64,000 nt of DNA, taken from NCBI GenBank assembly GCA_958295855.1, contig OY282383.1, forward strand, positions 106,707 through 170,706, written 5' to 3'. Source of the DNA: an uncultured Poribacteria bacterium. GTDB taxonomy: Bacteria; Poribacteria; WGA-4E; WGA-3G. The notes under the pieces were generated by a model. The model was not told the DNA's origin, ran no database searches, and worked only from the letters and a program-made list of their open reading frames with translations. Positions 26,039-31,740 of the stretch are shown one piece after another. Both the position numbers and the translations under genes were made by a program. Each line of letters begins with the position of its first letter. Position 1 is the stretch's first letter.

Positions 26039-26623
26039 TCAGAGGTTTCGCGCCACTGTGTGCTGGAACACTTTTTTGATATACGCGAGGATCTCTCCAA
26101 ACGAGCATCCGGTCGTTTTCACCATATAATCCGCTTGCGCGTAATACGGGTGTCGTTCCGCCAACATTGTCCGAATCTTAGCGAGGGCATCGGGTGTTTG
26201 GAGCAGCGGGCGGTGCGTTTGATGGCCAATGCGTCGATAGATTTCCTCCGCTGTCGCCGTTAAGCAGAAAACAACGCCGTTCTGCTTTAATTTTTTCATG
26301 TTTGCTTCTTTCAAAACAACACCCCCACCTGTAGCGATAACTTGGTTGCACATCTTTGAAACTTTATGAACCGCTTCGCTTTCTAATTGGCGAAAAGCCG
26401 GTTCGCCATCTTCCGCGAAAATGTCGTTAATGCGCCGGCCGCTCTCCTGCTCAATGATATCGTCTGTATCAACGCAGTGCATCCGGAGTTGCGAGGAAAG
26501 GCGACGGCCAACAGAGGTTTTCCCGGTCCCCATAAAACCGACAAGCACAATATTAGGTTTTCTTTTTAAGGGCCGCTTCACCTGTTTTCTACCTCTCGAC
26601 ATTGAGCACTCCTTAAAAGACAA
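26039..26623 (-). CDS. aroK: Shikimate kinase
   Basis: P-loop VGFMGTGKTSVGRRL, then FR..E and ATGGG. Directly upstream of aroB. Confidence 0.85.
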   Translation of the reverse strand: MSFKECSMSRGRKQVKRPLKRKPNIVLVGFMGTGKTSVGRRLSSQLRMHCVDTDDIIEQESGRRINDIFAEDGEPAFRQLESEAVHKVSKMCNQVIATGGGVVLKEANMKKLKQNGVVFCLTATAEEIYRRIGHQTHRPLLQTPDALAKIRTMLAERHPYYAQADYMVKTTGCSFGEILAYIKKVFQHTVARNL

Positions 26624-26713
26624 AAATCAAATGCAGCGAAAAAACAAGACGAATCAGGTTAATTTGATATTAGCCTTTATTATAGCACGATTCAAAAAAA
26701 ATTGTAAAGGTTT

Positions 26714-26742
26714 TTGCACGAATTCTCAAGGTGTGGTATAAT
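26714..26742 (+). promoter_or_regulatory. Near-consensus sigma70-type promoter with an extended -10
   Basis: TTGCAC (26714-26719), a 17-nt spacer ending in tgg, then TATAAT (26737-26742), about 90 nt upstream of the GNAT start. Confidence 0.5.
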
Positions 26743-26832
26743 TTTGTATCTATTAAGTGGGAGGGAAACCTTGTAAGCCCGATGACTCCTTGTGGGTTCG
26801 TATTCACTTTGCACTGGAAAAGGAGATGGCAC

Positions 26833-27369
26833 ATGGCACGACAACTCAGAATGGTTCGCCCCAATTTAGAAAATTTACCGAAACTAGCACTCCCTGTAGG
26901 CTACGGCATGCGAACCTACCAAGAAGGTGATGAGGTGCATTGGGCAAATATCATCAGCGACTCGTTCGGCGGAAGGCAACGCACTGTGCAAGACACGCAG
27001 GATGAGATTACCGGACGAGATGTGTTTGTCCCCGATGGGCTCTATTTCGCAACGCACCAAGGCATTCCTGTCGGCACTGCCTGTGCGTGGCGGCAATCTG
27101 TTGATGAAACAGATGTTGGATACGTGCACATGGTAGGCGTTGTAGCGCAACACACCGGACACAAACTCGGAAAATGGGTATCGCTCGCGGTCCTCTTCTA
27201 TTTTCGTAACCATGGATTCATAAGTGCCATGCTTGACACCGACGATTTTCGCATCCCTGCTATTAAGACCTATTTGAACTTAGGATTTATACCTGTTTAC
27301 GTTGAAGAAGGGCAACCAGAGCGGTGGCGGGACATCTTTGAAAAATTGGAGATGAGTGCTAGACCCTGA
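26833..27369 (+). CDS. GNAT-family N-acetyltransferase, paralogue 1
   Basis: MARQLRMVRPNLENLPKL...YQEGDEVHWANI...VGVVAQHTGHKLGKWV...LDTDDFRIPAIKTYLNLGFIPVY. Start moved to the ATG at 26833 after aaaaggaga. Confidence 0.7.
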   Translation: MARQLRMVRPNLENLPKLALPVGYGMRTYQEGDEVHWANIISDSFGGRQRTVQDTQDEITGRDVFVPDGLYFATHQGIPVGTACAWRQSVDETDVGYVHMVGVVAQHTGHKLGKWVSLAVLFYFRNHGFISAMLDTDDFRIPAIKTYLNLGFIPVYVEEGQPERWRDIFEKLEMSARP

Positions 27370-27404
27370 AAATCGGAGTAAATCGGTATAACTATCGTTT
27401 TTAC

Positions 27405-27433
27405 TTGACAAAGCGAAATAAATGTGGTATGAT
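27405..27433 (+). promoter_or_regulatory. Consensus-like promoter of tnpA with an extended -10
   Basis: TTGACA (27405-27410), a 17-nt spacer ending in tgg, then TATGAT (27428-27433). The ATG at 27440 lies about 7 nt downstream, so the mRNA could be leaderless. Confidence 0.55.
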
Positions 27434-27439
27434 GTAGGT

Positions 27440-28045
27440 ATGAATAACCTAATGTCACCACAAAAGGCTGCGCAGGTGTTGGATATTTCCATCGAGCACC
27501 TTCGCAGAATGGAAGCCCGCGGCGAAATCGACTGCGTGCGCACTGGAGGCGGGCATCGGCGTTACGATGTCCATAAGTTTGTTGATGCTCAACGTCAACC
27601 AGACATTTCTACCATTTGCTACTGTCGAGTCAGAGGAAAAGCGCAGGCGGACGCCCTCGCCGCGCAAGTCGAATTCATGCAAGAAAGGTACCCTGAAGCG
27701 GAGATTATCCAAGACTTCGGCAGTGGCATCAACTTCAAGCGAAAAGGACTCCAGCGGATATTGGACAGAGTCCTGTGCGGCGATAAACTCCGAGTTGTGG
27801 TCGCCCATCGGGATAGACTCGCCCGCTTCGGCAGCGAAGTCTTTCGATATCTTATCGAGCAAAACGGTGGAGAAGTCGTGGTTCTCAACCAAACTACTCA
27901 CAGTCCCGAACAGGAACTTACTTCCGATTTGCTGGAGATTCTCCACGTCTTTTCCTCACGGCTGTATGGACTCCGACGCTACCGTGACGAAATCAAAGCA
28001 GATACAAATCTTACCCACAACGCCACAGAAAGCGATACTCCGTAG
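27440..28045 (+). CDS. tnpA: IS607-type TnpA (MerR-HTH plus serine-recombinase domain) that lacks the expected nucleophile serine
   Basis: HTH is SPQKAAQVLDISIEHLRRMEARGEI. The recombinase core has YCRVRGKAQ where the family consensus is YARVSSxxQ, followed by DFGSGINFKRKGL and VVAHRDRLARFG. Confidence 0.75.
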   Translation: MNNLMSPQKAAQVLDISIEHLRRMEARGEIDCVRTGGGHRRYDVHKFVDAQRQPDISTICYCRVRGKAQADALAAQVEFMQERYPEAEIIQDFGSGINFKRKGLQRILDRVLCGDKLRVVVAHRDRLARFGSEVFRYLIEQNGGEVVVLNQTTHSPEQELTSDLLEILHVFSSRLYGLRRYRDEIKADTNLTHNATESDTP

Positions 28046-29117
28046 ATGGGAAGGTATCTCACGTTACGTCTACAACGAGGCGGTGAAGCAGTTTAACAAA
28101 GGCCGCAAGGTGTATGCGCCCGACTTGCTAAAAACATTACCTGAGTGGACATCGAATTGTCCTCGACATATCCGTGTCGGTGCAGTGATGGATGCACAGA
28201 AAGCGGTGACTGCAGCACGGCGAAAGTGGAAGGAAACCGGTGAACCGCAACGCGTAAAGTTCCGCAGGAAGAAGAATACCACGAAGTCGTTTTACTTGTG
28301 TGCGCAGTTCATCAAAGCTCATGGTTTCTATGTCAGGTTTCTTGGTGACATGAAGATGACAGAGCCACTGCCTGCGAAGCCACAAGGCCGTGGTAAGAAA
28401 GCCGACAGAGACCATGAAAACGAAGTTAAAGATGGCCGTGTGCTGTTTGAGAATGGCCGGTTTTACATGTGCGTCGCCTACAAGGAAAAAATCAAACCGC
28501 GAGACTCAAGCGGAAATATCGTAGCTCTTGACCCGGGCGTTCGTACGTTTATGACATTGTTTTCAGAAGGCACATTCGGTTGGCTTGGACATCATGCAAT
28601 TAATCGTATCCAGAGGCTCTGCCAACATGCAGATAATCTCTACTCCCGCGCAACGCAGGTGAAACGTCCGCTACGGCGTACCCTGCGACAATGTGCACAG
28701 AAGATTCAAGTAAAAATCCAAAATCTTGTGATGGAACTACACAAGAAAGTCGCACACTTCCTCGTCACAAACTTTGACATCATCCTGCTACCGACTTTTG
28801 AAACGCAGCAGATGATTAAGCGTGGCGCGCGGAAGCTCCGAAAGAAGTCTGTCCGTCAGATGTTGACGCTGTCGCATTACCAGTTCAAGATGTTCCTGAA
28901 GCAAAAGGCTTTAGAATATGGCGTTCTTGTAGTCGATGCCAATGAAGCATATACATCAAAGACGGTCTCATGGACAGGTAACATTGTCGAGAACCTCGGC
29001 GGTGCGAAGGTGATTACTGATGCAGACGGTAATCGGTGTGACAGAGATTTGAACGGCGCACGTGGTATTTTCATATCGGAAATGTCACGTGCTTTGAGGG
29101 TTCCTCCAGCGAGATAA
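27966..29117 (+). CDS. tnpB: TnpB (OrfB_IS605/IS607 type, RuvC-like RNA-guided nuclease family)
   Basis: The N-terminus KQIQILPTTPQKAILRRWEGISRYVYNEAV is typical of TnpB. RuvC-I is ALDPGVRTF, RuvC-II is DANEAYTSKT and RuvC-III is CDRDLNGARGI. Start placed at the ATG at 27966. The ORF-track extension back to 27567 is an out-of-frame overlap of tnpA. Confidence 0.8.
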   Translation: MDSDATVTKSKQIQILPTTPQKAILRRWEGISRYVYNEAVKQFNKGRKVYAPDLLKTLPEWTSNCPRHIRVGAVMDAQKAVTAARRKWKETGEPQRVKFRRKKNTTKSFYLCAQFIKAHGFYVRFLGDMKMTEPLPAKPQGRGKKADRDHENEVKDGRVLFENGRFYMCVAYKEKIKPRDSSGNIVALDPGVRTFMTLFSEGTFGWLGHHAINRIQRLCQHADNLYSRATQVKRPLRRTLRQCAQKIQVKIQNLVMELHKKVAHFLVTNFDIILLPTFETQQMIKRGARKLRKKSVRQMLTLSHYQFKMFLKQKALEYGVLVVDANEAYTSKTVSWTGNIVENLGGAKVITDADGNRCDRDLNGARGIFISEMSRALRVPPAR

Positions 29118-29260
29118 TCGCTGCAAACCACACGGTCGAGATGGTAACGCAATAGACGTTATCTCTGCTCTTGTCACGATTTGTGTAGGTTCAAAGGAAC
29201 AGATGCCTCCTATGTCAGTGCAAATCGTGAACGTTAGAGAAACACTCTCTGAGGAACTGT
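28950..29260 (+). ncRNA. Expected position of the TnpB omega/reRNA (not verified)
   Basis: In characterised TnpB elements the guide RNA scaffold overlaps the 3' end of tnpB and runs to the right IS end. This call rests on position only, and I could not evaluate the structure. Confidence 0.25.
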
Positions 29261-29305
29261 GGGCGAAAGTCTCACGTTAAAAATAGTGTGGAAGATCAGC
29301 TCAAA

Positions 29306-29830
29306 ATGGCTCGGCATGATTTAGAGAATCTGCCGAGGCTCCAGTGTCCTGATGGTTATCACATCCGGACTTATCAGAAAGGGGATGAGGTGCATTGGGC
29401 GCGAATCATGGACAGAGCCTTCGTCGACAAAGGCAGAACTGCCCAGGATGCGTACCGGGATGTCATCAGCCACCCTAATTTTGATCCGGATGGGTTCTTT
29501 TTCGTTCTCCACGAGGGGACACCCATCGGCACGGCATGTGCATGGAATCGATGTCTCCGTGGCAAACGGATTGGTTACATTGACATGCTCGCGGTGCTTC
29601 CAGAGCACACCGGACATAGACTTGGAAAATGGCTAACGGTGTCTGTCCTGCACTATTTTAAAGCGCGGTGTGTGGCGTATGTGATGTTAGACACTGACGA
29701 TTTTCGGCTTTCTGCAATTAAAAATTATCTCAATTTGGCGTTCGTTCCTGTTTATGCTGGCGAAAATCACGGTGAACGTTGGCAGGCAATCTTTGAAAGA
29801 CTAGGTGTTCCCCCTGTTGCAATTGCATAA
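29306..29830 (+). CDS. GNAT-family N-acetyltransferase, paralogue 2
   Basis: MARHDLENLPRL...YQKGDEVHWARI...LAVLPEHTGHRLGKWL...LDTDDFRLSAIKNYLNLAFVPVY. Colinear with the gene at 26833-27369. Confidence 0.7.
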   Translation: MARHDLENLPRLQCPDGYHIRTYQKGDEVHWARIMDRAFVDKGRTAQDAYRDVISHPNFDPDGFFFVLHEGTPIGTACAWNRCLRGKRIGYIDMLAVLPEHTGHRLGKWLTVSVLHYFKARCVAYVMLDTDDFRLSAIKNYLNLAFVPVYAGENHGERWQAIFERLGVPPVAIA

Positions 29831-30111
29831 GAGGCCTCCGAACCGCTCCGCACCTCCTTTTCTTTACGAAATCCGATTTTTCGTCATTCCTTGCGGAGAA
29901 TAGCATTGCAATGCTGTTCTCACAATACTCTGTAGCTCTGGTCGGAAGGCCCTTATGCACCCTTAATTAGCAGACAACACGCTACAACTAATAAGGAGAG
30001 TTAGTCACGCATTTTCAATGCGTGGCGAAGTTCTCCCGATTTTGAAGAGGGTTCACACCCCCGCAAGCGGGGGCGAGAACCTCATGCGGAAAAATCGGAG
30101 CAGAAACCCAA

Positions 30112-31740
30112 TTGACGAAAATACGAAAACGGGCTATTCATCTTGTCATGCCTGCGGTTCTGGCCATCGGCTTTGCGGCCCGCCTCATCGGCATAAACAT
30201 CGGCTTGCCCGACTCACCCGATCCGCGCGAGGCACTCATTGCCCAAGATGTGCTGAATCTTATTCATTTCACTGCACCCCCTGAAATCTACAACTGGCCA
30301 GGAACAGCTTGGTTCTACCTTATTGCTTTAATAGGCAAAGTCCTTTCAATCGGCGGCTTTCATCTCACCGAAGCGCGCGTGATTTGGGTGGCACGGCTCC
30401 TCAACGCGCTGCTATCCACAACTACCCTGTGGCTCACCTATCGTCTCGGAATGCGCTGTTACAACAGACATGTCGGGCAGATTGCGGCAGGTTTCCTCGC
30501 AGTCGCGATGCTACACGCTACCAATGAATCGCGTTTCGCACTCGTTGACATTCCTGCTACCTTCTGTGTCACCTTGTTTCTCTCAATAGTTGCTGGAAAT
30601 ACCCGCCTCACCTTCAAAACCGCTGTGTGGCTTGGTATCCTTGCCGGTATCGGTTTCGCAGTCAAATTCACAACCGTTTTCGCAGGTTTCTCCCTTCTAA
30701 TTTTTATTGGCACAGACAACTTTTACCGAAGGTTCGCAACAATTATTGCCGTTTCTGCCTTGACTTTTACGCTGCTATGTCCCTATTGGCTAATCGATGT
30801 AGTTTCGCCACAGTGGAACCTCTTCTTTGAGGATTTCTGGTACGAAGCCACACACTACCACCGGGGCCACTTCGGGCTATTCGCTACCGCCGACACCAGT
30901 TGGGCGCATCGGTTTATCTACATAATGACACTTCTGAAGTGGGGGTTGGGATGGCCGCTTGCTCTTTTGGCAAGTTTTGGGGTAATTTATGCAATTGCCA
31001 CGGCGGTATTGCATCAAAAATGCCACATCTTGCAAGGCACGAGTTGTTGTTCAAAAAACGCCAGAAGACGACTTCGCCTGCAACCTGATGAAAAAAAACG
31101 GGTATGGCTTTTGCTTGCCTTCGTTATCCCGTATCTGCTGTTTATTGGCGCACATAAGGTTACGTTTACGCGCCATCTGCTAATCCTCTATCCGGCACTC
31201 ACAATTCTTGCCGCCGCTGCACTAAGCACGTTTGAAAAACGGAGCGCGATTGCCATCGGTGGGGCTGTCATGCTTTACTCGTTCATTTACACCGCCGCTT
31301 TCGCCTCAGTCCTGATGTCGCAACCGACCGGGGGTGAGGTGTCCGAGTGGATATCCGCCAACATTCCACAAGAGGAATCTATTTCACGTTCCCCGGAAAT
31401 CTTATTCGATTGGCTCCTTCCCGAATTAGACCGGGAGCTGACAGATGAAGAGGCGGAATGGGCACTCATTCTTCTGCCGAACAGCGAGGTGTTCCAAAAG
31501 TACGCACAACAGCCGCACCATTATCAAAAACAGGATTGGTATCCTCTGGTGGAAATTGACATGGAGGGAACCCTAGAATTTTACGAACGAATCTTAGCGG
31601 AGGGAAGCCCTTATGAATTGCGCCAGATATTTCGCAGCACCCCGAATTTCCTAGGCATTCGCATCTCCGATAGGGACGCGCCGTTTCCGATGCGGGCACT
31701 TGCACACCCTGAGATTCGTCTTTATCGTCGCCGCGATTAA
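30112..31740 (+). CDS. ArnT/PMT-like membrane glycosyltransferase (GT39/GT83-like)
   Basis: About 11 TM helices with a C-terminal soluble domain. The first loop has PDSPDPRE. The general architecture matches dolichyl-phosphate-mannose or undecaprenyl-phosphate sugar transferases. Start uncertain (TTG at 30112). Confidence 0.6.
   Translation: MTKIRKRAIHLVMPAVLAIGFAARLIGINIGLPDSPDPREALIAQDVLNLIHFTAPPEIYNWPGTAWFYLIALIGKVLSIGGFHLTEARVIWVARLLNALLSTTTLWLTYRLGMRCYNRHVGQIAAGFLAVAMLHATNESRFALVDIPATFCVTLFLSIVAGNTRLTFKTAVWLGILAGIGFAVKFTTVFAGFSLLIFIGTDNFYRRFATIIAVSALTFTLLCPYWLIDVVSPQWNLFFEDFWYEATHYHRGHFGLFATADTSWAHRFIYIMTLLKWGLGWPLALLASFGVIYAIATAVLHQKCHILQGTSCCSKNARRRLRLQPDEKKRVWLLLAFVIPYLLFIGAHKVTFTRHLLILYPALTILAAAALSTFEKRSAIAIGGAVMLYSFIYTAAFASVLMSQPTGGEVSEWISANIPQEESISRSPEILFDWLLPELDRELTDEEAEWALILLPNSEVFQKYAQQPHHYQKQDWYPLVEIDMEGTLEFYERILAEGSPYELRQIFRSTPNFLGIRISDRDAPFPMRALAHPEIRLYRRRD

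Follow-up and report, generated by a model that had tools for sequence, protein, structure and literature searches.

A predicted pro-Fanzor-type TnpB without zinc-finger cysteines in an IS607-family insertion sequence of a sponge-symbiotic poribacterium

Introduction

The closest described systems to the locus presented here are the TnpB proteins of the pro-Fanzor or TnpB2 type, which are encoded by IS607 elements, mostly of cyanobacteria (Yoon et al. 2023, PMC10711439). Their defining features are a DPG signature in the RuvC-I motif and a shifted catalytic glutamate (PMC10711439, PMC11832414); the latter precedes the first zinc-finger position by six residues, and phenylalanine occupies the canonical glutamate column. 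They are partnered by a serine recombinase of the IS607 type and their reRNA extends to the right end of the element. IS607 elements move by recombination at a core dinucleotide (PMC10711439; 10.1101/2023.11.20.567912), and their reRNA includes an invariant nucleotide of the flank (PMC10711439). In CboIStron and ISXfa1 (10.1101/2023.11.20.567912; PMC10711439) the serine TnpA recombines at the core dinucleotide of both ends, the target motif serves as the TAM and the donor joint is cut by TnpB; the core is GG, the TAM is TGGG or GGG and the TnpBs possess a zinc finger, the Cbo element carrying a group I intron as well.

Two further systems are relevant through their solved structures. The Fanzor2 protein of Acanthamoeba polyphaga mimivirus (ApmFz2, L79; PDB 9b0l; PMC11832414) is viral and eukaryotic, has the same shifted glutamate, keeps a Cys4 zinc finger, uses a GGG TAM and possesses an N-terminal domain that is not encoded within a transposase gene. 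The TnpB of ISDra2 (8exa, 8h1j), which is partnered by a Y1 transposase, has the canonical RuvC-II glutamate and a Cys4 zinc finger and lacks an N-terminal extension. The literature has the zinc finger of TnpB as common, but not universal. Branches of TnpB without it are noted by Altae-Tran et al. 2023 (PMC10691335), although the accessible part of that paper does not describe the particular branch treated below, its RNA or its target. The published search for pro-Fanzors employed a pattern that demanded CxxC...CxxC (PMC10711439), and so a zinc-less branch would be missed.

The window analysed here is a stretch of 64,000 nucleotides, in whose coordinates all features are given, from the genome of a sponge symbiont, Candidatus Poribacteria (5.55 Mb in two contigs). 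A first-pass annotation of this DNA had noticed a TnpB without zinc-finger cysteines linked to an apparently dead TnpA, and had proposed that it could be either a repurposed RNA-guided protein or simply a decaying copy. Our essential contention, in which we have considerable confidence, is that the locus is instead an IS607 copy encoding a naturally zinc-less nuclease of the pro-Fanzor type.

Results

Extent of the element and its insertion in a GNAT gene

The IS607-family insertion sequence in the window occupies positions ~27352-29202. It is one of seven full copies in the genome, which share 86-96% nucleotide identity and are accompanied by two remnants truncated at the 5' end; the family is found in 54 of 176 genomes of the Poribacteria phylum. 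When the copies are aligned with their flanks, their likeness ends exactly past ...GGTTCAAAGGAACAG at position 29202, where the right end closes with ...GGAAC followed by AG. The left end (27352..27439, + strand) was located by alignment of six to eight copies, which are conserved from AGTGCTAGA (27355), its boundary being uncertain by 3-5 nt. Before AGTGCTAGA there are three variable bases and, upstream of these, a near-invariant (G)GAG, which almost every copy and relative has 5' of its left end. In the window copy this is the GGAG at 27348..27351 (+), the predicted TAM, whose last AG is the dinucleotide common to the right end. The left end also contains a promoter-like sequence, TTGACA-17-TATGAT (27405-27433), which scores 11 of 12 in a promoter scan and has an extended -10.

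An uninterrupted orthologous site is present in three related genomes, as TTGGAG in G070, where CTCCCACCCATG follows directly, and as TTGGAA in G066 and G067. Joining window position 27351 to 29203 restores a GNAT reading frame, whose C-terminus (...RETLSEELWAKVSR and stop) is collinear with those of its orthologues. The empty sites and the restored frame together indicate that the GNAT gene upstream was hit by the element within its final 25 codons, that the GGAG belongs to host DNA and that the AG dinucleotide lies at both junctions. [quoted passage not shown] Its displaced 3' end is found at 29203..29280 (+), collinear with the uninterrupted C-termini in L089, L090 and L091, and a tandem GNAT paralogue lies downstream at 29306-29830. 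The '170-nt non-coding tail' of the first-pass annotation (29118-29287) is therefore only partly what it seemed; 29118-29202 is the right end of the element with the 3' part of the RNA scaffold described below, but 29203-29280 consists of GNAT codons.

AG is found at both junctions in all copies, where the IS607 elements studied previously have GG, and there is no consistent target duplication, given a left boundary placed to within 3-5 nt. By analogy with the established mechanism, the junctions would fit IS607 recombination at a core dinucleotide, with AG instead of GG. Three other placements were considered and rejected: a 2-nt core 'GN' at the palindrome centre of the joined ends (65% relatives) fits only one of eight copies; a 3-nt ATG target duplication fits the window copy only; and a core AG placed where AGTGCTAGA begins adds 5 nt to the rebuilt GNAT frame and conflicts with the empty sites.

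In a sister family of 50% identity (L122-L138 and L140-L166), whose members come from Poribacteria, Caldilineaceae, Moorena and Latescibacteria, the element closes with ...ATCGG, which is the classical GG core, and a gene start often lies 6-13 nt past its end. A 252-bp contig (L029, NZ_VRMG01000155.1) in an assembly labelled Lacisediminihabitans profunda, an actinobacterium, codes at 93% identity for residues 36-117 of TnpB, and probably strayed into that assembly as a contaminant.

Lesions in tnpA and selection on tnpB

The first gene of the element, tnpA (27440..28045, +), encodes an IS607 serine recombinase with a MerR-like helix-turn-helix (NF033518, 159 bits, cut-off 110), in which an N-terminal MerR/HTH_17 domain is followed by the Resolvase domain. 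In the window copy the nucleophile Ser71 has become arginine (AGA, 27632-27634), RVRG being aligned to RVSS of ISC1904 TnpA (3ilx); this copy should consequently be unable to move itself, and the earlier impression of a dead TnpA is borne out. Serine (AGC) is present at this position in L019, L020 and L030, as it is in most relatives. The change to arginine occurs in four of the genome's copies, including the window copy, three of which also have a frameshifting hairpin insert. Such inserts, of 35-38 nt, are found in the tnpA of four copies (L017, L018, L019 and L021, at about window position 27559/27560), L019 having the hairpin alone, and in a further copy (L022/L023, G000:C1:3099366-3108602) tnpA is split by ~7.3 kb of DNA. 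Altogether tnpA has a lesion in six of the seven copies, and only that of L020 appears intact.

The hairpins are REP-like sequences of 35-39 nt, of the type GGTATT..CCCCGCTTTGCGGGG..ATACC. In tnpB they occur in frame only, at the 3' end of the gene in L020, L021 and L022 (at about window position 29075), where they contribute 13 extra residues within the loop of the first omega-RNA hairpin; L022 has a further in-frame insert in mid-tnpB.

Pairwise dN/dS among the copies is 0.12-0.26 for tnpB, with dS of up to 0.39, and 0.35-1.2 for tnpA, where substitutions are few; judged from these sequences, tnpA looks relaxed compared with tnpB. For the same pairs among copies L016-L021, synonymous divergence is several-fold lower in tnpA (0.03-0.15) than it is in tnpB (0.11-0.39), which suggests mosaic copies, gene conversion or a nucleotide constraint imposed by overlapping frames.

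The arginine at position 71, the lesions in six of seven tnpA genes and the location of the window copy inside a gene, away from the usual site of the family (see below), would all be in keeping with a decaying pseudo-element, in which tnpA is dead and tnpB and its RNA are merely unbroken so far. We find this quite improbable, since tnpB is of full length with all of its catalytic residues, differs from its nearest sister by 16 non-synonymous and 27 synonymous changes, and is followed by an omega-RNA scaffold identical or nearly so to those of the other copies. The tnpB frame is open in all seven full copies and, whereas the hairpins of tnpA shift its frame, those of tnpB do not; neither the frameshifts nor the relaxed selection that would mark tnpB as a decaying copy are seen among these copies. 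The low dN/dS is partly a record of selection in an active lineage before insertion; as evidence against decay it accordingly carries more weight for the family as a whole than for the single copy in the window. The window copy is, in our reading, a normal, non-autonomous member of a thriving IS607 family that happens to have clipped a GNAT gene.

A RuvC core without zinc ligands

The core of tnpB (27966-29117) retains the three catalytic residues that had been recognised in its RuvC motifs: D189 (28530-28532) in RuvC-I (ALDPGVRTF), E327 (28944-28946) in RuvC-II (NEAYTSKT) and D361 (29046-29048) in RuvC-III (DRDLNGARGI). The protein matches the NCBIfam model guided_TnpB (NF040570) with 113.4 bits, above the cut-off of 100, and the Pfam family Cas12f1-like_TNB at 1.8e-12. 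In an alignment of 150 relatives, D189 is conserved in 147 sequences and both E327 and D361 in all 150. None of the four zinc-ligand cysteines is present; their columns in this alignment are filled by V334, T337, D352 and a gap, and the lone C358 falls in a hydrophobic column that holds M, V, L or I in relatives. It had been reported that the cysteines were gone save one, and the alignment indicates that they are indeed absent, rather than shifted. The TNB segment that is equivalent to the zinc finger (V334 to C358, 28965..29039, +) has an S-W-T-G motif and no zinc ligands.

The same condition is widespread among relatives. CxxC...CxxC is found in 52 of the 150 aligned sequences and the other 98 sampled representatives are zinc-less; most of these share S-W-T-G-E (with the tryptophan in 79 of 98) and an isoleucine at position 350. 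All 120 of the closest database homologues, at 63-96% identity, are zinc-less. In a tree estimated without the zinc-finger columns (FastTree, midpoint-rooted), 96 of the 98 zinc-less rows fall inside one clade of 104 with support of 86; at least five state changes are needed, for which we claim no direction. Zinc-less relatives occur in cyanobacteria (Anabaena, Anabaenopsis, Moorena, Microcoleus, Tychonema, Planktothrix and others), in Caldilineaceae and in Latescibacteria, which together with their presence in Poribacteria indicates that loss of the zinc finger is old and lineage-wide. The loss is clade-wide and includes elements whose TnpA retains its serine. An AF2 model of the 383-aa core has a pLDDT of 92.2, with the zinc-less segment forming short beta strands (pLDDT 81-89); the fold of the segment is probably retained, given that its length and conserved motif are kept.

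We know of no zinc-less member of this clade that has been assayed, and it is conceivable that loss of the zinc finger ended DNA cleavage, leaving an RNA-guided DNA binder or omega-RNA chaperone that would benefit the element by another route and whose RuvC site serves RNA processing only. The TNB/zinc-finger domain does adjoin the RuvC site in the solved TnpB and Fanzor2 structures (PMC11832414), and TnpB is known to process its own RNA (PMC10278001). However, the D-E-D triad is essentially invariant over 150 diverse members, zinc-bearing and zinc-less alike, the clade has many members, is multicopy and extends across several phyla, as would fit a working maintenance nuclease, and the length and motif of the segment are preserved with, probably, its fold. 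A protein that no longer cleaves DNA is therefore unlikely in our view, although a zinc-less nuclease could be a weakened one.

Affinity with pro-Fanzors and Fanzor2

The RuvC-I motif contains the DPG signature (D189-P190-G191), with the proline conserved in 142 of 150 relatives. The catalytic glutamate, E327, is the residue conserved throughout the alignment directly before the zinc-finger position, six residues ahead of its first column as in the described pro-Fanzors, and the canonical glutamate column is again phenylalanine (F278). By these sequence features the window TnpB is of the pro-Fanzor/TnpB2 type, that is, of a lineage related to the ancestors of eukaryotic Fanzors, as are Oscillatoriales relatives at 36-40% identity, of which the homologue in L027 is a Cys4 form. 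It likewise has an IS607 serine recombinase for a partner and a predicted reRNA running to the right end. The differences from the published pro-Fanzors (PMC10711439) are that all four zinc-finger cysteines are missing and that the element has an AG dinucleotide with GGAG upstream, where theirs have GG or GGG.

The closest solved protein by both sequence and fold is ApmFz2 (phmmer 3.8e-20, profile 1.1e-65, VIA Z 27.7 over 406 residues), with which E327 aligns at an NE pair, followed by the TnpBs of ISFba1 and ISDra2. The latter resembles the window protein in overall fold (Z 25-26) and in its omega-RNA logic.

A predicted omega-RNA scaffold of conserved structure and its predicted guide

It had been anticipated that the omega-RNA would lie at the 3' end of the tnpB frame and in the tail behind it, and this is where a conserved structure is found (29046..29202, +). 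RNAalifold yields a consensus of 34 pairs from ten diverged right ends, comprising a helix inside the coding sequence (29054-29072/29078-29096), a closing stem, GUUCCU/AGGAAC (29100-29105/29195-29200), which finishes two bases before the end, and two further helices (29107-29112/29118-29123 and 29126-29132/29184-29191). A covariance model constructed from the same ten right ends locates ~150 sites in 55 of 112 genomes of the family. Over a set of 36 sequences, the share of cells that pair is 95.7%, and it is 34-50% when the partners are slid, in an alignment that was fitted to the model and so favours the structure, the slid controls being drawn from that same alignment. Compensatory changes are seen in 20 of the 34 pairs of these sequences, and none of 500 shuffles reaches any of five structure measures. 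Within the genome, only one of the 85 non-coding scaffold positions varies among copies.

Two checks that had been suggested for this RNA were less informative: a search of Rfam over 26500-30500 (E up to 10) returned no match, the RNA being one without a curated model, and the fold of the single sequence 28980-29222 gives a z of only -2.2. The claim rests instead on the comparative analysis, which bears out the predicted omega-RNA as a genuine conserved structure.

In three genomes (G108, G105 and G173) there are many omega-RNA model matches of 114-121 nt with no tnpB match (e.g., G108:C1:2480969-2481085), G108 having 15 RNA matches against four strong TnpB matches; such sites might represent solo right ends or mini-elements that carry no protein. 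In L034-L058, where right ends measure 229-247 nt, most of the 65%-identical relatives contain an extra module of ~100 nt that separates the scaffold core from the terminal ...AGGAACAG and appears to have arisen by partial duplication of the region of the terminal stem.

The likeness between copies ends where the scaffold does, and the first 16-20 nt of host flank (29203..29222, +) are the predicted guide, a role that we assign by analogy with the biology of IS607 and TnpB (PMC10711439). A genome-wide search with the 20 nt past the scaffold matches its own site only, as would be expected of a guide aimed at the vacant site.

TldR proteins are nuclease-dead, TnpB-like repressors whose RuvC site is inactivated and whose guide is fixed on a host promoter. 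A domesticated regulator of this kind could be imagined here, with a dead TnpA beside an intact TnpB and a guide region just upstream of a paralogous GNAT gene, and it would agree with the earlier suggestion of a repurposed RNA-guided protein. We give this very little credence: all three RuvC residues are in place, the genome has seven mobile copies, whose sites are unrelated, the guide is plain flank with no second target in the genome, and loss of the zinc finger is not confined to copies with a dead TnpA. Nor did we find a fixed single-copy orthologue with a conserved guide matching a promoter across species. Rather than a repurposed protein, the locus presents a standard multicopy insertion sequence with its ends, a predicted promoter and a putative flank-derived guide.

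A probable upstream extension of tnpB inside tnpA

The full open frame of tnpB (27567..29117, +) encodes 516 aa, its TnpB-homologous core beginning at 27966. The extension (27567-27965, +) overlaps tnpA in another frame and contains an SWF motif at 27876-27884. Over the 133 codons upstream of the core, the tnpB frame is stop-free in 48 of 54 loci (from Poribacteria and Caldilineaceae, with one Moorena MAG and one other); the third frame has a mean of 6.5 stops and is open in none of the 54, and the tnpA frame is open in 72%. Two four-fold degenerate valine codons of tnpA are frozen, as GTG in 61 of 61 and as GTT in 60 of 61 distinct sequences, and the preceding codon always ends in C, which indicates that S-W-F is kept in the tnpB frame. 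Residues W66, S104, W105 and F106 are each at least 90% conserved among 97 long homologues. The hairpin insert found in the tnpA of four copies stands 7 nt ahead of this frame's ATG (27567) and so leaves the tnpB frame untouched.

A profile of the long forms aligns with ApmFz2 from residue 77, matching its SWY to the SWF seen here, and residues 62-511 of an AF2 model of the 516-aa form superpose on residues 53-518 of 9b0l (Z 27.7), whereas ordinary TnpBs align to this model from residue 138 only. The extension is modelled with moderate pLDDT (60-82) and residues 1-62 are predicted to be disordered. A 383-aa gene model starting at 27966 was rejected, because that ATG is missing in other copies and the frame is open upstream; 27567-29117 appears the likelier tnpB gene. 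From the conservation and the model, 27567-27965 probably encodes a Fanzor2-like N-terminal domain.

Frequent siting before host start codons

We compared 36 insertions (L032-L058, with L017-L022 from the genome of the window), which are not all independent since some sites are common to several genomes. An open frame of at least 80 codons begins no more than 30 nt from the right end in 34 of them. In 23 of the 36 an ATG start lies 4-11 nt past the right end, compared with 1.7% at random window positions and 5% after any GGAG. The typical left flank is AAGGAG and, taken with the nearby ATG, this indicates that the family usually sits just behind the Shine-Dalgarno motif of a host gene and ahead of its start codon. 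Survivorship alone might yield part of this bias. There are two exceptions to the siting, one being the window copy, which is located inside a gene instead. The AGGAAC-AG of the right end could, from its sequence, act as a substitute ribosome-binding site.

Discussion

In proposing how this element operates, we draw on the tested IS607 TnpBs, and the life cycle that we envisage is that of CboIStron and ISXfa1. Transcription would start at the sigma-70-like promoter of the left end and cover tnpA, tnpB and the right end in a single unit. The product of tnpB would be an RNA-guided RuvC nuclease of the pro-Fanzor/TnpB2 lineage, from a sublineage in which the Cys4 zinc ribbon appears to be replaced by a zinc-free hairpin around a conserved tryptophan. 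The last ~70 nt of the open reading frame and the 85 nt behind it would make up the omega-RNA scaffold, to which readthrough into host DNA would add a guide of 16-20 nt. The ribonucleoprotein would then cut the vacant site, marked by GGAG and a match to the guide, so that the element is restored by recombination. Having lost its own nucleophile, the window copy could be mobilised by the one sister copy whose tnpA appears intact.

The extension and the insertion sites may belong to one picture, which we have not found described: a Fanzor2-type N-terminal domain would be translated from a second frame inside tnpA, and the TAM and target would be the GGAG of a Shine-Dalgarno motif, with the AGGAAC of the closing stem furnishing a new ribosome-binding site. 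We put this joint reading forward tentatively, and would place its chances a little below even. The N-terminal domain has so far been seen in Fanzor2 only, and here it is apparently overprinted in a transposase gene. If the reading is true, the domain is older than the Fanzors, the evolution of the two genes of the element is bound together, and the element comes to lie behind the ribosome-binding site of a host gene and before its start codon.

The zinc-less branch adjoins the ancestors of eukaryotic Fanzors, and it bears on the purpose of the zinc-finger domain and on the design of smaller editors. It would mean that a successful branch of TnpB works, or at least persists under selection, without a zinc finger.
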